This document shows positions 2,276-16,314 of a DNA stretch of 17,644 nucleotides, one piece after another. The stretch covers positions 1 to 17,644 of the IMG/VR virus record IMGVR_UViG_2737471835_000010. One strand, written 5' to 3'. The DNA is from a virus (Duplodnaviria; Heunggongvirae; Uroviricota; Caudoviricetes). Position numbers and translations under genes: made by a program. Under the pieces are notes generated by a model. The model saw only the letters and a program-made list of their open reading frames with translations. It ran no database searches and had not been told where the DNA came from. Position 1 is the first letter of the stretch. Every line of letters begins with the position of its first letter.

Positions 2276-3262
2276 CTAATTTTTATTTAATGTTGGTGTG
2301 ATGCGTATTTTTCTATCATAAACCATGACTTGTGATTCAGTTTTGTGCCCACTAAATAGCTGCTTTTCTTTTGATGATCCTTCATAGTCAGAAATTCCTT
2401 TAGCTTTCAGATCATGAAATGTACAATCCAGAGGTCTTCCAAGATAGTTGGCTGCCGCTGTTCTTGCTTTTCGCCATGCCTCATTAAACCCCTTGTAAGA
2501 GTAACGCTCTCCATACATGGTTTTAATTACTGACCCTGTTTCCCCCCACGATCTGCAAATATCAACTGCCGCGCGCAGGCGATCAGTCCACGCCTTGATC
2601 TGCTTAACTCCCGTCTTGCCCTGCTGAATAAAAATTCCTTTATCCATTATCTGCGGCCAGTCCATTTTCAAGACATCGGATACCCTCGCTGCACATAAAT
2701 AAGCTATTTCCATTGCGGCTTTAACTGGCTCACTGGCGTGTTCATAAATCGCCATGTATTCCTCATCTGTGATGTAGCGATCACGCTTTGGTTTAGGGAA
2801 TTTATCTACTCCAACGCAAGGATTTCCAGGAACATATCCTCGTTGGTATCCCCAACGAAATACCCGAGACATTGAACTGTGCTCATGGTTAGCTTGGACA
2901 CGACTTTTCTTTCCTCTGGCATCCATATACCGCCTTACATGTTCTGGTCTAATAGTCTTTGCTTCCGCTTCGCCAAAAACAGCAAGGAGATATTTTTCGT
3001 GGGCTAGATAATCCTTTTGAGTTCGTGGTGCCAAATCTGCATAATCGGCACTATTGAGAAATTTCTTCCAAAGCTGGGCAAAAGTTATTCGTCTTTTTCT
3101 CCCCTCTACAATTTTTTCAAAAGCAACCCAGACATCTGCTTTTGTTGCATTGGCTGATGCAATTTTTTCTGTTGTTCCCCCTGGTTTCCAGTAGTAGCCA
3201 GAAGGGCGGAAATATACCCCCTTCGGCATCCATTCATTACCAGGTGCTCGTTTTCGACCCAT
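2276..3262 (-). CDS. int: Tyrosine site-specific integrase (lambda Int family)
   Basis: 328 aa. The N-terminus MGRKRAPGNEWMPKGVYFRPSGYYWKPGG resembles the arm-binding region of lambdoid integrases. The catalytic domain has the typical R...H..R...Y layout (e.g. HDLKAKGIS ... SGHKTESQVMVYDRK). It lies directly next to an xis-like gene. Confidence 0.9.
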   Translation of the reverse strand: MGRKRAPGNEWMPKGVYFRPSGYYWKPGGTTEKIASANATKADVWVAFEKIVEGRKRRITFAQLWKKFLNSADYADLAPRTQKDYLAHEKYLLAVFGEAEAKTIRPEHVRRYMDARGKKSRVQANHEHSSMSRVFRWGYQRGYVPGNPCVGVDKFPKPKRDRYITDEEYMAIYEHASEPVKAAMEIAYLCAARVSDVLKMDWPQIMDKGIFIQQGKTGVKQIKAWTDRLRAAVDICRSWGETGSVIKTMYGERYSYKGFNEAWRKARTAAANYLGRPLDCTFHDLKAKGISDYEGSSKEKQLFSGHKTESQVMVYDRKIRITPTLNKN

Positions 3263-3553: not shown

Positions 3554-3769
3554 TTAATTTTGTTCTCTGGTTGCTACCTGTTTAATTGGCCTGATGCTGT
3601 CCAGGAGCAGTCGGCGGCGCGTATTTTCTGCAAAGTGGCGGCGTCCGGTTTCTTTGTGGTAAAACTCGTTTTTTCCGACGACCCACATCCGCTTTGTCAG
3701 GTGCAGTTTTTTTACCTGCGGACCGTTTCGGGTAATAACAATTCCTGTATGAGTTTTTATCACGCTCAT
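3554..3769 (-). CDS. Hypothetical small basic protein (71 aa)
   Basis: ATG at 3769 overlaps the upstream gene's stop (ATGA) and has GGAGA 8 nt upstream. It is co-oriented with the early-left operon. The plus-strand ORF 3560-3808 over the same DNA was rejected. Confidence 0.45.
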   Translation of the reverse strand: MSVIKTHTGIVITRNGPQVKKLHLTKRMWVVGKNEFYHKETGRRHFAENTRRRLLLDSIRPIKQVATREQN

Positions 3770-4782: not shown

Positions 4783-5607
4783 TCAGGCGGTGAAAGTACC
4801 AATAAAGGTTTCTACTTTGCTGTCTTTGAATTTCTCAACAAGCAGATCACGAAATTCGTTAGCCATTTCTTCCTGCACCGCCTCCAGCTGAATAATGCGC
4901 AGAACCAGTACAGGACGATCGCCAGTGATAATGCTGAGGCGTAATTTAAATGGACGTTCTTTCAGACCTTCAAACGGAACGCATTTAAATTCAAATGCCA
5001 CTGGCATAATATCTTTGGTTTTCGCTTCGACAGACTCCATCAGGGAGCGTTTGCCGCTGAAGTCATTATCTTCAAAATCAGCGGTCTGGTTTGCTTCAAT
5101 CGTGATTTTACGGACAGCCGCAGCCGCTTTTGTTGCCTGAATAGCGTCACCATTAGCATCAAAGCCCACAAGGTAGTCGGCCCAGTCTTCAATCCATTCT
5201 GCCAGTGACTTCTGGGAATGACGCTCGCCATTAACAGACAACAGAGCAGAGAACGGTGCTGTCTTTTTCAGTTTGAGAGTGGCGGTGTTATCTGCGTGAC
5301 CTGGTTCATCAATAGTACCCAGGTTAAGCACACTGACGGCTCGCATATTATCGGCATCGATAAAGCAGCGGGTGCCTTCATCTGCAAGATCTTTAGAATA
5401 ACGGGTAAAGTCATCGATGCTGGCAGTGGAAAGCGCACCACGGAAACGGAAGCGATTTAAATTAAATTTTTCCAGATCATGAATGCGGAAATTCTCAGGC
5501 AATGCCACAGCATCGGCACCAATCTTACTGATAATTTCATTAACACCCTGAGCAGAAATAAGAGCATGGATTTGATTAATTGCGGTTGCGTCTAAGTTCT
5601 GAGACAT
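4783..5607 (-). CDS. YfdQ-like protein (DUF2303 family), function unknown
   Basis: 274 aa, the same length as E. coli KplE1 YfdQ and in the same gene order as yfdP-yfdQ-yfdR-yfdS. GAGGA lies 7 nt upstream of the ATG. Family assignment is from memory. Confidence 0.7.
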
Positions 5608-5672
5608 AATAAGTCCTCACTATATAAAGATATTCAGTGATGAGATAAATAATCAGTTAATTAAGAACGATA

Positions 5673-6045
5673 TTAATGACCTGCTGCGCGAAGTTTTCCG
5701 TCAGGTTCACCGGCAAGAGTCAGTAATTGTCCCTGGTCTTCCTGCAGAATAGTCAGGCGACCACCGCGATTGACATACATCGGCGTTTCGGTGGTGTCTT
5801 CTTCAGAAATTTTCCCGCGGTTAGTCGGGCGAACATATGAGAGTTTGTGTTTGATTTTCACACGGTTCTCATCAAACGGTTCGATTTCCAGGTTGAGCGA
5901 GACCTTACCTTTGGTTTTCGTGTTCATCACACCGGAAGCGACTTCACTGAGAACAGCGCCGATTTTGGTTTCAAATACGCCGCCGTCCAGCTCCCCGATA
6001 AATGCCTGCACATCAGTACTGCGTTCGCTAGCCATTTTGCTGCTC
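5673..6045 (-). CDS. Hypothetical early-left protein (YfdP-like)
   Basis: The ORF track extends to 6266, but the only start with a ribosome-binding site is ATG at 6045 (GAGGAG 7 nt upstream), giving MASERSTDVQAF... (124 aa). The upstream extension overlaps a highly structured non-coding region. Confidence 0.6.
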
Positions 6046-6083
6046 CTCATCATATCGACCCTGCAAGGTCGGTTGGTTTCTCC

Positions 6084-6172
6084 ACAAAACAGAGAAGAAC
6101 ACCTGCGGTGACTGCCGCCCGGATGGATTGGGTTATGAGCCCGTCGTCCGGTGATGCTCTTCTCTGTTTTGT
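6084..6172. repeat. 15-bp perfect inverted repeat (ACAAAACAGAGAAGA ... TCTTCTCTGTTTTGT) flanking a 59-bp GC-rich spacer
   Basis: Read directly from the sequence: arms at 6084-6098 and 6158-6172. It would form a long hairpin in the 5' leader of the YfdP-like gene, immediately downstream (minus strand) of the terminator at 6173-6218. Confidence 0.6.
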
Positions 6173-6235
6173 AAAAAGAGCGGTACCAGCCGGAAGCAAG
6201 GGTACAAACTGGTACCGCCAAAGCAGTGGCTGTTG
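6173..6235 (-). ncRNA. Candidate small RNA 3' end / intrinsic terminator in the early-left leader (possibly DicF-like)
   Basis: On the minus strand a 10-bp perfect stem (GCGGTACCAG / CTGGTACCGC, 6180-6218) is followed by UCUUUUU. The segment UUUGGCGGUACCAGUUUGUACCC resembles my recollection of the E. coli DicF sRNA. This is unverified memory; extent and identity are uncertain. Confidence 0.3.
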
Positions 6236-6643
6236 TGGTGGGGTTGTCACTCAGGCGTATGGTCAACCTGACAATCCGGTGTCCTCAACGGGGAAAGAGT
6301 AACCCCGCCATACTTACCGCCGCGCCATTTCGCGGATTACCACAACGCTGAGAGCACTTAGCCAGTTACGGCACCACACTTTGTCGCGGCTCCATAAATG
6401 CCCTCATCGTTGCACCCTGGTCTCTTCCCAGGCGTCAAACCGAATCGCCACGCTGGTTAGGCGTCTTATCAGCATCATCATTGACTTGCACATTCCGGCT
6501 ACCTGGTTTGTTTGCCCGAGCAAGGAGTGGATTGTCCCCTTTAACGTCCCCAGACCGCTAACGACGCATGTGCCATACGCCGTGTTACAACCAAATTTTG
6601 TTAGTACCTTGTTTGTTTGTCTGGAAAGAAAGATAAAATGAAG

Positions 6644-6682
6644 TTGCGCATTATGCAAGTGTTTTTGTTGCGAGATATGCAA
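6644..6682. promoter_or_regulatory. Putative OL operators: two 15-bp sites TTGCGCATTATGCAA and TTGCGAGATATGCAA
   Basis: Two copies of a TTGCG-N5-ATGCAA dyad-symmetric motif lie 9 bp apart just downstream of the cI terminator. A third copy (TTGCGCGTTAAGCAA) lies in the cI-cro intergenic region. Confidence 0.45.
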
Positions 6683-6692
6683 TTTAAAGGGT

Positions 6693-6717
6693 AATGAAAA
6701 GCCACCTTTGGGTGGCT
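6693..6717 (-). terminator. Rho-independent terminator downstream of the cI-like repressor
   Basis: Minus-strand hairpin AGCCACC-CAAA-GGTGGCT followed by TTTTCATT, 20 nt after the cI stop. Confidence 0.65.
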
Positions 6718-6737
6718 AATTGATGAGGAGGTAAGGG

Positions 6738-14026: not shown

Positions 14027-15079
14027 ATGAAAAATACTGTAAAAATAAACAGTGTTGATTTAATCAACGCTGATTGCCTGCATTTTATTCAGTCCCTGCC
14101 TGATGATTCCATTGACCTGATTGTTACCGATCCGCCGTACTTCAAGGTGAAACCCAACGGCTGGGACAATCAGTGGAAAGGGGACGAAGATTACCTTAAG
14201 TGGCTGGACCACTGTCTGGCCCAGTTCTGGCGGGTGTTAAAACCTGCCGGAAGCCTTTACCTGTTCTGTGGGCATCGCCTGGCATCTGATATTGAGATCA
14301 TGATGCGTGAACGTTTCAACGTGCTTAACCATATCATCTGGGCGAAGCCGTCCGGACGTTGGAATGGGTGTAATAAAGAAAGTCTGCGCGCATATTTTCC
14401 TGCCACAGAGCGCGTTCTGTTTGCTGAACATTACCAGGGGCCATATCGCGGCAAAAGTGACGGCTATGCAGCAAAAGAAAGGGAACTCAAACAGCACATA
14501 ATGGCACCGCTGATATCGTATTTCAGGGATGCTCGTGCCGAACTGGGTATAACGGCAAAACAAATTGCCGAAGCCACAGGTAAGAAAAATATGGTTTCCC
14601 ACTGGTTTGGTGCCAGTCAGTGGCAGTTGCCGAATGAGGCTGACTATCGGAAGTTACAGGCACTGTTTTCCCGTATAGCGGCAGAGAAGTTTCAGGAACA
14701 ACAACTGGAACAACCACACCACCAGCTGGTGGCATCTTATGATTCACTGAATCGTAAATATTCTGAATTGCTGGATGAGTTTAAATCTCTCCGGCGCTAT
14801 TTCTCCGTATCAGTCTCCGTGCCTTATACCGATGTCTGGATGCATAAACCCGTTCAGTTCTACCCGGGGAAACATCCGTGTGAGAAACCGGCGGATATGC
14901 TCAGGCAAATAATCAATGCCAGTAGTCGACCAGGTGATCTGGTTGCTGATTTTTTTATGGGATCCGGTTCCACAATAAAAGCAGCAATGGCGCTGGGGCG
15001 TCGGGCCTTAGGTGTTGAGCTTGAGTCAGAGCGGTTTAATCAGACAGTGAAAGAGATAAACGAGCTGGTGGGGAAATAA
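14027..15079 (+). CDS. DNA methyltransferase, beta-class amino-MTase (probably N6-adenine), orphan
   Basis: Motif IV DPPY (LIVTDPPYF) near the N-terminus and motif I FxGxG (DFFMGSGST) near the C-terminus, the order typical of beta-class N6A/N4C methyltransferases. No restriction endonuclease partner is adjacent. Confidence 0.9.
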
Positions 15080-15780: not shown

Positions 15781-16314
15781 ATGAACGCAAAAATCAGATA
15801 CGGCCTGTCGGCTGCCGTTCTGGCACTGATTGCCGTCGGTGCGCCCGCGCCTGATATTCTCGACCAGTTTCTGGATGAAAAAGAAGGTAACCACACAACG
15901 GCATACCGCGATGGGTCCGGCATCTGGACCATCTGTCGGGGTGCCACGATGGTGGATGGAAAACCCGTTTTTCCCGGTATGAAACTGTCGAAGGAAAAAT
16001 GCGACCAGGTCAACGCCATTGAGCGTGATAAGGCGCTGGCATGGGTGGAGCGCAATATTAAAGTACCACTGACCGAGCCACAAAAAGCGGGTATCGCGTC
16101 ATTTTGTCCCTATAACATTGGCCCCGGTAAGTGTTTTCCGTCGACGTTTTATAAGCGGCTGAATGCTGGTGATCGTAAAGGTGCATGCGAGGCGATTCGC
16201 TGGTGGATAAAAGATGGTGGGCGCGATTGCCGCATACGTTCAAATAACTGCTATGGACAGGTTATTCGTCGTGACCAGGAAAGCGCATTAGCCTGTTGGG
16301 GGATAGATCAGTGA
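15781..16314 (+). CDS. R: SAR endolysin (T4-lysozyme-like glycoside hydrolase, R21-like)
   Basis: N-terminal weakly hydrophobic Ala/Gly-rich signal-anchor-release segment ([18 protein letters not shown]), followed by a catalytic E...D...T region ([20 protein letters not shown]). Located right after the pinholin, as in phage 21. Confidence 0.9.

Follow-up and report, generated by a model that had tools for sequence, protein, structure and literature searches.

The interval at positions 6036-6640 of the window (the window being the whole stretch analysed, 17,644 nucleotides of the Caudoviricetes record IMGVR_UViG_2737471835_000010) lies between the OL operators and yfdP and is non-coding, G+C-rich and strongly folded (Table 1). 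Sequence comparison indicates that this leader is pieced together from four conserved, separable RNA modules (C, then B, then a DicF-type hairpin-terminator, then A), each of which is common to otherwise unrelated phages. It appears best explained as equivalent to the dicF-containing 'long untranslated region' of the K-12 Qin dicBF operon. On this reading as a whole, the leader is probably the untranslated 5' part (approximately 590 nt) of the transcript made from the early-left promoter pL in an SfV/mEp460/cdtI-like lambdoid prophage and, by analogy with dicBF, would both yield a small RNA and attenuate the early-left genes.

Extent and composition of the leader

The G+C fraction of the leader is 0.53-0.57, compared to 0.38-0.45 in its flanks. 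Relative to shuffled sequences, a 631-nt stretch folds with z = -4.8 on the minus strand and z = -4.95 on the plus strand. With the lack of a coding signal (see below), these values bear out the first-pass annotation, which had proposed a structured, GC-rich non-coding pL leader of approximately 600 bp. That annotation was wrong to start the first early-left gene at 6045, as the RefSeq annotation of the identical locus places the ATG at 6035. It also listed several long perfect inverted repeats, of which only one is perfect.

Exact matches to TTGC-N7-GCAA are found at 6644-6658 and 6668-6682, at 7451-7465 (on the pR side, beyond cI) and at one chance site. The pL promoter and its transcription start were read by eye from the sequence and are putative; a consensus promoter scan of the window does not call pL. 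Comparison with homologues that carry other immunity regions shows that immunity-type-specific sequence stops near 6600. The repressor may have an S24 peptidase domain, judging by eye and from a note on the mEp460 repressor.

Table 1. Features of the early-left region of the window, listed in the direction of pL transcription
Feature	Coordinates	Strand	Description
cI-type repressor gene	6738-7430	minus	Placed in the XRE family by RefSeq at the identical locus; the gene and its terminator hairpin lie immediately upstream of OL
cI-type repressor terminator hairpin	6717-6700	minus	
OL operators	6643-6658, 6667-6682		Two 16-bp repeats, identified as a direct repeat
Candidate pL promoter	6630-6658	minus	-35 TTGCAT (6658-6653), 17-bp spacer, -10 TATCTT (6635-6630); predicted start near 6622
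Module C	6582-6343	minus	Pseudoknotted RNA of ~240 nt
Module C core	6416-6582	minus	H1 (6582-6562, loop UGGCACA); H2 (6554-6502, long, variable); invariant junction GGUAGCCGGAAUGUGCAAG (6503-6485); variable hairpin H3; pseudoknot of H4 and its loop (6465-6434); H5 (6432-6416, loop GAAGAGA)
Module C 3' domain	6343-6412	minus	Long hairpin closed by CAACGAUGAGGGCAUU / AAGUGCUCUCAGCGUUG; variable tip; its end is the first base of the next unit
Module B	6232-6346	minus	Pseudoknotted domain of ~115 nt, homologous to the sequence directly 5' of dicF; outer helix (6346-6339 with 6239-6232); hairpin P2 (6335-6320); helix P3 (6318-6308 with 6262-6254); hairpin P4 (6307-6289, C/U-rich loop); pseudoknot (6277-6269 with 6249-6241)
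DicF-type cassette	6171-6231	minus	Spacer AGCCACUGCUUU (6231-6220); hairpin (6219-6179); tail UCUUUUUAC (6179-6171)
Module A	6084-6172	minus	Three-way junction located shortly before the ribosome-binding site of yfdP; closing stem of 20 bp (6172-6153 with 6103-6084); branch P2 (6151-6119) with invariant GGGCUCAUAACCC hairpin; variable branch P3 (6118-6105)
Leader 3' end	6036-6083	minus	Conserved GGAGAAAC (6083-6076); small hairpin CGACC-UUGCAG-GGUCG (6071-6056); Shine-Dalgarno GAGGAG (6048-6043)
yfdP	5673-6035	minus	First early-left gene, 120 aa, start ATG 6035; RefSeq annotation of the identical locus; PHROG phrog_204 (E = 1e-49)

Modular organization and sense strand

BLAST breaks the leader into blocks that are each common to unrelated phages. 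In the approximately 250 loci compared, the modules occur in many combinations, all of them in one orientation and all keeping the order C, B, A. As these loci were retrieved by exact conserved strings, the blocks described here as invariant are partly invariant by construction. Covariation folding across homologous prophages, an approach suggested by the first-pass annotation, reveals compensatory base changes in modules C, B and A, far above slid and shuffled controls (related sequences inflate the shuffle statistics). The sense strand is the minus strand, because pairs that are invariantly or frequently G-U (such as columns 24-34 and 47-106 of the module C alignment, A3, where every or nearly every sequence has G-U) would turn into A-C mismatches if the opposite strand were the transcript, and because the neighbouring tRNA genes are co-oriented with the modules in nine of nine loci. 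Judged from these signals, the functional strand is that of the pL transcript.

The conserved blocks might instead act as DNA, either as recombination linkers for module exchange or as protein-binding sites, with the RNA folds being incidental. They lie at the borders of mosaic segments common to unrelated phages, and at one locus (L330) a recombinant junction falls inside the terminator. However, pair-keeping compensatory changes that include G-U pairs, as well as two pseudoknots, are strand-specific RNA signals, and the blocks keep a fixed orientation with respect to transcription and tRNA genes. A role at the DNA level is very improbable.

Module C

In the alignment of 27 module C sequences (A3), which represents 12 or more genera or phage types, 98.7% of cells are paired (26-45% with slid partners), 11 pairs are changed on both sides and the observed covariation is reached by none of 500 shuffles. 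The pseudoknot pair is C-G in 23 sequences, A-U in four and unpaired in none; in the window, the pseudoknot joins 6458-6455 to 6441-6438. The H1 loop may also pair with the junction (GCACA with UGUGC). The closing duplex of the 3' domain has a predicted energy of -20 to -29 kcal/mol in 18 of 19 loci (approximately -12 for shuffled partners) and shows many compensatory variants. In phiV10, SPN1S and a Klebsiella phage, this domain abuts position +1 of a tRNA-Arg gene.

Of 5426 complete E. coli genomes, 1834 carry module C. It is also found in P1/D6, epsilon15-like and other lambdoid phages, where it often adjoins co-oriented tRNA genes, and its range covers the Enterobacteriaceae together with a few genera close to them among the enterobacteria (Erwinia, Phytobacter), and the phages of these hosts. 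In many loci it lies 15-40 nt downstream of strong promoter-like sequences, and in both the window and mEp390 it lies downstream of pL. In P1 it is located deep within the ban operon, after a tRNA; in epsilon15-like phages it is part of a short tRNA/sRNA unit with its own promoter-like sequence and terminator. What fills the tRNA slot downstream of module C varies, and the modules found there have an acceptor-like closing stem in common (GUUGUGG...CCACAAC). Even with up to three mismatches allowed, the window has a single copy of each conserved module C block. The compared phage loci have no gene partner common to the contexts of modules C and B.

These contexts bear on the possibility that module C, module B or both are functional RNAs in their own right and share a transcript with the early-left genes only incidentally; they might be ligand- or protein-binding, act as a decoy or sponge, or be self-processing in connection with tRNA maturation. 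The promoter-like sequence and terminator that accompany module C in the epsilon15-like phages and in many prophages would suit such RNAs, as would its position beside co-oriented tRNA genes in nine loci, the ending of its 3' helix at tRNA +1, the shared closing stem of the modules in the tRNA slot and the recurrence of C/U-rich UCCUU or CCUCC loops (found in H2, in hairpin P4 of module B and in the terminator hairpin). The lack of a common partner gene and of similarity to ribozyme, riboswitch or protein-binding families in Rfam argues against it, and we consider it unlikely, although it overlaps the dicBF-type reading and is compatible with it.

At gathering scores, Rfam 15 has no match anywhere in the window, and lax scans of 5600-7600, 6140-6260 and 6225-6625 return chance-level matches only. 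The leader has no Rfam 15 match to ROOL, GOLLD or C4/IsrK, or to ribozyme, riboswitch or protein-binding families, and ARAGORN finds no tRNA or tmRNA in the window. GOLLD and ROOL, reportedly described by Weinberg et al. in 2009 and 2017, are said to be large structured RNAs of phages and prophages that adjoin tRNA genes. Module C resembles them in being an ornate, pseudoknotted, non-coding RNA of phage genomes that is often beside co-oriented tRNA genes. It differs in matching no Rfam family, in its smaller size, in its occurrence in enterobacteria and their phages, and in being part of an mRNA leader here.

Module B and the DicF-type cassette

Homologues of module B are located directly 5' of an Rfam-confirmed DicF in PPompW and of the annotated dicF in K-12 Qin, and another is present in the 'dicF-like region' of P1. 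(P1 itself has both B-like and C-like modules in its ban operon.) In an alignment of 46 sequences (A4), 96.1% of module B cells are paired, compared to 34-52% with slid partners, and eight pairs are changed on both sides. The cassette that follows module B varies across phages: at least seven different short seed-plus-terminator types are seen, that of the window among them. Two other readings of module B were considered. Its outer stem is acceptor-like, but a tRNA-like or RNase P substrate would lack a conserved 3' NCCA, and this was kept as an idea only. An HDV-like ribozyme topology for the pseudoknot was dropped because the helix order differs.

The cassette in the window has a hairpin with a 13-bp stem (-21.5 kcal/mol, z = -3.1) and the U tract UCUUUUU. 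Its loop, UUUGUACCCUUGCUUCCGG, is C/U-rich and 15 nt long, or 19 nt if the stem is limited to the 10-bp perfect repeat. With a G+C-rich stem followed by a U tract, 6219-6171 has the features of an intrinsic terminator, and the hairpin that the first-pass annotation called a terminator (6173-6218) is real. A generic terminator scan (loop of 3-8 nt) skipped this hairpin because its loop is longer than 8 nt. In most loci, a DicF-type hairpin with the tail CUUUUUAC lies 320-670 nt downstream of module C.

The position of the cassette is that of DicF: it lies 3' of the dicF upstream domain, ends in an intrinsic terminator and belongs to an early prophage operon. The DicF model (RF00039), which gives 76.7 bits in PPompW as a positive control, does not match the cassette, whether at the gathering score or in relaxed scans (2 kb at E <= 5; 121 nt at E <= 10), and the DicF 5' seed UUUCUGGUGAC (approximately 20 nt) is absent. 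DicF itself is characterized by Hfq binding and by base pairing with ftsZ, xylR or pykA mRNAs. Because it lacks both a DicF-type seed and a covariance model match, the cassette may be only a terminator rather than a trans-acting sRNA. The earlier suggestion that one or more prophage sRNAs are derived from the leader nevertheless gains support from the homology of 6346-6232 to the dicF 5' domain and from the DicF position of 6219-6171, which are consistent with such a product.

A boxA-like sequence had also been noted directly after the terminator. The string is present (CGCUCUUUUUAC at 6182-6171) but is not conserved, as homologues read CCGCCCUUUUUAC, CCGUCCUUUUUAC or CCGACCUUUUUAC. It belongs to the terminator tail, which in homologues is CCGCC-CUUUUUAC, CCGUC-CUUUUUAC or CCGAC-CUUUUUAC, so that the CGCUCUUU of the window is a single C-to-U change in a conserved tail. 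A functional boxA is not supported, and the boxA/nut reading was rejected for this lack of conservation.

The resemblance to the K-12 Qin dicBF operon extends beyond module B. Both have a structured domain (~115 nt in the window) directly 5' of the sRNA position, followed by a hairpin and U tract with a C/U-rich loop that begins with the shared string UUUGGCGGUAnCAGUUU. In both, a long-stem structure extends to the ribosome-binding site of the next gene, within a repressor-controlled early operon of a lambdoid prophage (PMC5069750). The two differ in that the window cassette lacks the 5' seed, has a different loop and has no match to the DicF model. The window unit is located directly at pL and is preceded by module C, whereas the K-12 unit is preceded by ydfABC, and the K-12 dicF-dicB spacer has no homology to module A. 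This spacer does fold into a long closing stem that starts right after the U tract. In K-12, RNase III is reported to make a 72-nt DicF and RNase E its 5' end (PMC5069750).

If a small RNA is produced as proposed, the leader would also resemble the sources of P4 CI RNA and P1/P7 c4 (C4, RF01695), small RNAs that are cut from the untranslated leader of a repressor-controlled early operon. Unlike these, the window has no match to the C4 or IsrK model, both of which match elsewhere, in mEp460, and no complementary target sites are recognized in the leader. The literature searched on yfdP, on the dicF-like region of P1, on antitermination in SfV and on pseudoknots in connection with dicF gives no description of modules C, B and A. 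A 1994 study of dicF-related prophage sequences by Faubladier and Bouché may already note part of the conserved flank.

Module A

The minimum-free-energy fold of module A is the same three-way junction as that in Table 1 (-46.2 kcal/mol, z = -6.6). Its closing stem corresponds to the inverted repeat at 6084-6108 and 6148-6172 (25 nt, 84% complementary). In an alignment of 36 sequences (A6), 96.1% of cells are paired (38-52% with slid partners), 11 pairs are changed on both sides and 65 cells carry such changes. Module A precedes different first genes. In one locus it directly follows a pL-like promoter, and in ST64B-type loci it is located directly after the promoter without C or B.

The 20-bp, covariation-supported stem of module A is a candidate RNase III site; its positional analogue in K-12 is also a long stem. 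The pL leader of lambda is said to contain nutL and an RNase III-sensitive hairpin upstream of N (reportedly Kameyama et al., 1991). As in lambda, a long hairpin in the window separates the pL-proximal signals from the ribosome-binding site of the first gene, the module A stem being the positional analogue. In contrast to the lambda leader, the window lacks boxB, a conserved boxA and an annotated N gene, and module A is a conserved three-way junction common to many phages, in which the RNase III site is putative.

Coding potential of the leader

Several GenBank phage records annotate hypothetical proteins here (mEp460_036/037 and SfII_35/36 among them), so the leader might encode one or more small proteins. 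The G+C-rich sequence contains stop-free runs of 34-66 codons, and an ORF at 6053-6250, which overlies the module A hairpin, is matched by PHROG phrog_33599 (unknown function); this match is read as deriving from earlier annotation calls. The annotated ORFs, however, are on differing strands in different records, and the identical RefSeq E. coli chromosomes have no gene annotated by PGAP in the leader interval. A conserved coding frame was looked for in homologues and is absent. Variable columns are spread over the three codon phases (37/40/38 in module C and 26/32/27 in module B), showing no three-base periodicity, and in-register indels are outnumbered by out-of-register ones by 110 to 14 in module C and 32 to 1 in module B. 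Module A varies from 102 to 129 nt among homologues, with out-of-register lengths. Pfam finds nothing significant in four ORFs inside the leader, and only BHD_3 in the ORF that overlaps yfdP, at a chance-level E-value of 0.07 that is far below cut-off. Paired columns change together, as expected for RNA. These results agree with the first-pass view that the leader has no credible ORF, and a protein-coding function is extremely improbable.

Antitermination

The first-pass annotation found no N-like gene. PGAP lists only a Q-type antiterminator in the identical prophage, and the first gene, yfdP, lacks an N-terminal arginine-rich motif; N proteins are poorly conserved, and this comparison is at the annotation level only. 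A conserved boxA (CGCUCUUUA-like), as in the lambda-type N/nut system, is likewise not found in the leader. RNA-mediated processive antitermination could replace N, with module C or B binding the elongating RNA polymerase to allow read-through of the DicF-type and later terminators. Such a mechanism would be put-like without kinship to put. The invariant junction nucleotides and pseudoknots suit a protein- or polymerase-binding RNA, module C is near promoters in many loci (including pL in the window and in mEp390), and a terminator is always located between modules C/B and the protein genes. The module C carriers mEp460 and mEp390 bear mEp names, from which we infer membership of the mEp collection, isolated as Nus-dependent; the source names neither phage (PMC11893012).

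Other contexts do not fit this mechanism. Module C is missing from Qin-type operons, which do have module B and the terminator, both C and B are missing from ST64B-type loci, the epsilon15-like unit is a short tRNA/sRNA unit rather than the head of a long operon, and the P1 module C follows a tRNA within the ban operon. The boxA-like string is not conserved, and module C has one copy only, without a partner on the pR side.

The first-pass annotation had considered a relationship to the HK022 put RNAs. The leader does resemble putL and putR in being a structured RNA near the early promoter of a lambdoid phage without an N gene and upstream of terminators. A put covariance model (R1) built from 17 putL/putR sequences scores 99 bits with HK022 putL and 82.8 bits with putR as controls. 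Its best match in the window is 7.1 bits (E approximately 6) at 15934-15981, and nothing is found in 6036-6640. Known put loci have two divergent matches approximately 1.2 kb apart, whereas the leader has no similar repeat on the pR side of the window. The put RNAs, which suppress termination in cis in dependence on the RNA polymerase beta' zinc-binding domain, are approximately 70 nt long with two stem-loops and share no sequence or structure similarity with the much larger pseudoknotted module C, which also occurs outside operon leaders. Kinship with put is not upheld, and antitermination by the leader RNA is distinctly unlikely. A 35-nt similarity between 6357-6391 and 9439-9473 was judged to be due to chance, an 11-nt exact core being expected many times in 17.6 kb.

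Proposed model of leader function

A model based on dicBF can be outlined for the pL transcript. Upon derepression, RNA polymerase starting at pL would transcribe modules C and B and reach the hairpin-terminator at 6219-6171. Transcripts that stop there would be non-coding RNAs of approximately 450 nt. Trimming of the 5' side by RNase E, as for DicF, would release a small hairpin RNA whose C/U-rich loop could pair with the purine-rich ribosome-binding regions of target mRNAs. Read-through transcripts would enter module A, where RNase III cleavage of the closing stem would separate the RNA section from the yfdP-yfdQ-yfdR message. The terminator would thus serve both to make the sRNA 3' end and to attenuate early-left expression. 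The start site, termination and processing steps in this model are drawn by analogy with K-12 dicBF. Modules C and B may be processing or stability domains, binding sites for host factors or modifiers of elongation.

In modules C and B, junction nucleotides and pseudoknots are conserved more strongly than a passive processing scaffold would require, which points to a specific function outside this model. It is conceivable, at somewhat less than an even chance, that module C, and B and A along with it, belongs to a kind of structured phage RNA not described before and has a specific biochemical activity within a modular RNA-producing system. Module C, directly upstream of a tRNA or a tRNA-sized module with an acceptor-like stem and then of a DicF-type sRNA, would in that case bind RNA polymerase or a host factor, direct or catalyse the processing of the downstream tRNA/sRNA, or sense a ligand. 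DicF would then be merely the best-known output of such a system.

Since the 1980s, work on DicF has treated it as a 53-nt sRNA standing alone within a "long untranslated region". The comparisons made here indicate that the dicF-type untranslated region itself consists of conserved pseudoknotted RNA domains, which are shuffled among lambdoid, P1-like and epsilon15-like phages and combined with different sRNA hairpins and tRNA genes. Three of the modules have no match in Rfam 15, yet roughly one in three complete E. coli genomes carries module C. If the modules control termination, processing or stability of the early transcript, this would explain early-left expression in lambdoid phages that lack N (SfV, mEp460, Stx2c and cdtI types). 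The modules provide defined RNA elements for mutational work, and spurious "hypothetical proteins" can be removed from many phage records.

Setting and boundaries of the leader

The window is a lambdoid E. coli prophage of the SfV/mEp460/cdtI-like type, and many E. coli chromosomes are 100% identical to positions 5600-7500. In the PGAP annotation of an identical locus, integrase and small genes are followed by minus-strand yfdR, yfdQ and yfdP; beyond a gap of 700 bp come the minus-strand gene of an XRE-family cI-type repressor, cro, ymfL, an O-like gene, others and a Q-type antiterminator gene. This annotation contains no N-like gene, in agreement with the first-pass annotation. A 71-aa basic ORF toward the distal end of the early-left operon has an arginine-rich stretch (TGRRHFAENTRRRLLL); its position and layout are not N-like.

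The gap contains a leader between OL and yfdP that would be transcribed from pL on the minus strand. Operator repeats bound it on the cI side, and their motif (TTGC-N7-GCAA) is found again on the pR side. A candidate pL with a putative start can be read from the sequence, although it is not called by a consensus promoter scan. The first early-left gene, previously placed at 6045, is yfdP, which begins at 6035 (Shine-Dalgarno sequence at 6048-6043). The interval is GC-rich as proposed (G+C 0.53-0.57 vs 0.38-0.45 in the flanks) and highly structured, beating dinucleotide shuffles on either strand (z ~ -4.8); the terminator hairpin and the 25-nt inverted repeat within it are likewise confirmed. 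In several homologous prophages in the databases the early-left region is decayed and the RNA leader intact. The prophage of strain GTEN_24 (L001 4213-4910), otherwise identical to the window, has an IS1 inserted in yfdR.

Features of the leader and other regions of the window
Feature	Window positions	Description
Operator repeats	6643-6658, 6667-6682	cI side of gap
Operator motif	7451-7465	pR side
Candidate pL, -35	6658-6653	TTGCAT; 17-bp spacer
Candidate pL, -10	6635-6630	TATCTT
Candidate pL, start	~6622	
Module C	6582-6343	minus strand
Module B	6346-6232	minus strand
DicF-type hairpin-terminator	6219-6171	between modules B and A
Terminator hairpin	6219-6179	13-bp stem, -21.5 kcal/mol, then UCUUUUUAC
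Module A	6172-6084	minus strand
Inverted repeat	6084-6108 / 6148-6172	25 nt
Purine-rich GGAGAAAC	6083-6076	3' of module A stem
BLAST block	6046-6240	common to SfV, SfII, SfIV, ST64B
BLAST block	6224-6346	common to PPompW-type (Qin-like) prophages
BLAST block	6340-6583	common to epsilon15-like phages phiV10, TL-2011b, SPN1S
BLAST block	6419-6596	common to P1, P7, D6, SJ46
Basic ORF	3554-3769	minus strand
Iteron-like repeats	8971-9093	six tandem 15-bp repeats (TCAAAATCTGACNCG)
O-like replication gene	8683-9624	
Gap after Q-type gene	13420-14027	~600 bp, before next long ORF

A mosaic of RNA modules

When compared to phage genomes by BLAST, the leader resolves into several blocks, each with its own phage set, rather than one homologous block. 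The matched regions of these phages carry no RNA annotation, and some records list "hypothetical proteins" there on a strand that varies between records. Three modules were defined (C, B and A, in order of transcription). Among approximately 250 loci, these occur as A alone, B with DicF, C-B-A, C-A and C alone; in P1, module B is followed by module C 2.4 kb downstream. Such varied combinations, in which orientation and order never change, support the view of the modules as independent RNA units. Loci were collected using exact conserved strings, so that outside the first eight sequences, which came from BLAST, the invariance of these strings is imposed by the search.

G-U pairs are invariant or frequent in all three modules, where the plus strand would give A-C mismatches; together with the co-orientation of neighbouring tRNA genes, these fix the minus strand as the sense strand. 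The interval had been described as non-coding and can be retained as such: substitutions are not periodic by codon, most indels break the reading frame, module A lengths are out of register among loci and Pfam matches nothing significantly. A single PHROG match, to a family of unknown function, falls on an ORF overlying module A and is regarded as annotation-derived.

Module C and its tRNA neighbours

Alignment of module C from the window, P1, D6, phiV10, SPN1S, PAT1, a Klebsiella phage and mEp390 shows invariant blocks split by variable hairpins. In a one-genome-per-species scan with the invariant 19-mer, further loci came from Kosakonia, Citrobacter, Klebsiella, Kluyvera, Enterobacter, Buttiauxella, Erwinia, Phytobacter, Superficieibacter, Pseudescherichia and Pseudocitrobacter. 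The structure derived from 27 sequences consists of H1, the H2 base, a junction helix, H4, a pseudoknot (the H4 loop pairing with a downstream GGUG) and H5. It is 98.7% paired, compared to 26-45% when each column is paired with a shifted partner, and 11 pairs (62 cells) are changed on both sides. No shuffle of 500 matches this, but because the sequences are related such shuffle controls are inflated and the slid-partner controls are the fairer comparison. At the pseudoknot pair, 23 sequences have C-G and four, from at least three lineages, have A-U; none is unpaired.

The 3' domain of module C has a long closing helix (-20 to -29 kcal/mol in 18/19 loci; approximately -12 with shuffled partners) whose end coincides exactly with the first base of the unit that follows. 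In phiV10, SPN1S and the Klebsiella phage the following unit is tRNA-Arg, and in the window it is module B; elsewhere it is another module, enclosed in the same acceptor-like stem (GUUGUGG...CCACAAC). Modules with such a stem recurrently take the place of a tRNA. A tRNA directly precedes module C in P1, D6 and one Escherichia genome, and same-strand tRNA genes, always co-oriented, lie within 600 nt in 9 of approximately 31 loci. Many loci have a promoter-like sequence (TTGACA-17-TACCTT) 15-40 nt upstream. Module C is present in 1834 of 5426 complete E. coli genomes and annotated in none.

In phiV10 (L005 2650-3190), SPN1S (L008) and Klebsiella phage ST512-KPC3phi13.3 (L009), the terminase-portal gap contains a minus-strand unit of promoter-like sequence, module C, tRNA-Arg(UCU), DicF-type hairpin and second terminator. 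This unit occurs in epsilon15-like and related phages, and only its tRNA is annotated.

Module B and the DicF cassette

In PPompW (L006), Rfam places DicF at 2940-2991, and the match to window 6224-6346 (3001-3123) is on the same strand, immediately 5' of DicF. In the Qin prophage of E. coli K-12, the same domain (GUUGUGGC...GCUGCAAC) leaves 17 nt between its end and the annotated dicF. Searching IMG/VR with a conserved 19-mer gave more than 100 module B loci, and in these at least seven different short cassettes come after the ~115-nt domain, among them canonical DicF, the window version and a P1 version; every cassette ends in a hairpin and U tract. The window cassette shares UUUGGCGGUAnCAGUUU with DicF but lacks its 5' seed, and is not matched by the DicF model.

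The module B structure, derived from a 46-sequence alignment, comprises an outer helix, hairpin P2, helix P3, hairpin P4 and a pseudoknot. In this structure, 96.1% of cells are paired (34-52% with slid partners) and eight pairs are changed on both sides. The "dicF-like" region of the P1 ban operon is a diverged module B copy with compensatory changes.

In this C1-controlled operon (L004, NC_005856.1 68010-74194), the module B-like domain precedes tRNA-Asn and tRNA-Thr and a module C-like domain lies between tRNA-Ile and ban, all on the ban strand. PP818812.1 (L380, "Actinobacillus phage vB_Apl-pPE4") has Rac/Qin-like genes (kil, exoVIII, dicA, ydaT) and, in its pL leader (1360-1620), a 5'-truncated module B followed by two tandem DicF-variant cassettes; the 85% identity of its sequence to E. 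coli prophage sequence casts doubt on the stated host. In mEp460 (L002), Rfam identifies adjoining IsrK (67 bits) and C4 antisense RNA (83.6 bits) matches at 5665-5853, within the annotated rha antirepressor gene (5305-6456); neither is matched by Rfam in the window.

Module A and the 3' end of the leader

The "long hairpin" formed by the inverted repeat is the closing stem of a three-way junction with an invariant branch, GACGGGCUCAUAACCCAAUCCA. This junction is the minimum-free-energy fold of the window sequence (-46.2 kcal/mol, z = -6.6). Approximately 100 module A loci were found in a third scan; in 36 sequences, 96.1% of cells are paired (38-52% when slid) and 11 pairs (65 cells) are changed on both sides. 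The terminator tail always directly precedes module A, which is followed by conserved GGAGAAAC, a small G+C hairpin and the ribosome-binding site of a first gene that varies between phages. At one locus, module A follows a pL-like promoter without modules C or B.

Possible antitermination or processing of the leader

The leader had been compared to the HK022 put RNAs. A put model, built from loci retrieved by a pattern common to putL and putR (many with the expected divergent pair ~1.2 kb apart), assigns 99 bits to putL and 83 bits to putR and finds nothing in the leader. Module C is single-copy in the window. Homology to put is not supported, nor is the proposed boxA. Hairpins of homologues from Citrobacter and other prophages end in CCGCC, CCGUC or CCGAC followed by CUUUUUAC, a tail also present in the DicF-type hairpins that lie downstream of module C in phiV10, Klebsiella, Erwinia and others, so the window's CGCUCUUU is one substitution in a terminator tail. 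The mEp collection was isolated as Nus-dependent (PMC11893012), which keeps the antitermination question alive without locating a signal; mEp460 and mEp390 carry module C and bear names of this collection, and neither is mentioned in that paper.

With module B adjoining dicF in both PPompW and K-12 Qin, the evidence favours the other initial suggestion, that sRNAs are processed from the leader. In K-12, the DicF 5' end is made by RNase E; its 3' end results from termination in the 53-nt form and from RNase III processing of full-length transcripts in the 72-nt form (PMC5069750). The K-12 dicF-dicB spacer has a long closing stem starting just after the U tract, where the +19 cut would fall. The K-12 dicBF region and the window have the same layout of structured 5' domain, hairpin-terminator and long-stem module reaching to the next ribosome-binding site, and a stop-or-read-through mechanism is proposed on this basis.

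The proposed model is as follows. Transcripts from pL would either stop at 6173-6179 or read through. Stopped transcripts would form an RNA of ~450 nt, from which trimming would yield a small hairpin RNA whose loop is C/U-rich. Read-through transcripts would be cleaved within the stem of module A and would express yfdPQR. Termination, trimming and cutting are all inferred by analogy with K-12. The conservation of modules C and B exceeds the need of a passive scaffold; they may bind a host factor, take part in processing or have a put-like function without homology.

C/U-rich loops (UCCUU or CCUCC) recur in H2, module B hairpin P4 and the terminator hairpin. GGAGAAAC lies 3' of the module A stem in nearly all of the ~100 loci, whichever gene is downstream, and could form base pairs with the UCCUU or UUCUCC loops that recur in the modules upstream of it.

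Elsewhere in the window, the gap following the Q-type antiterminator gene presumably contains the late promoter and leader, and has no Rfam match. The iteron-like repeats within the O-like gene look like a lambdoid replication origin.
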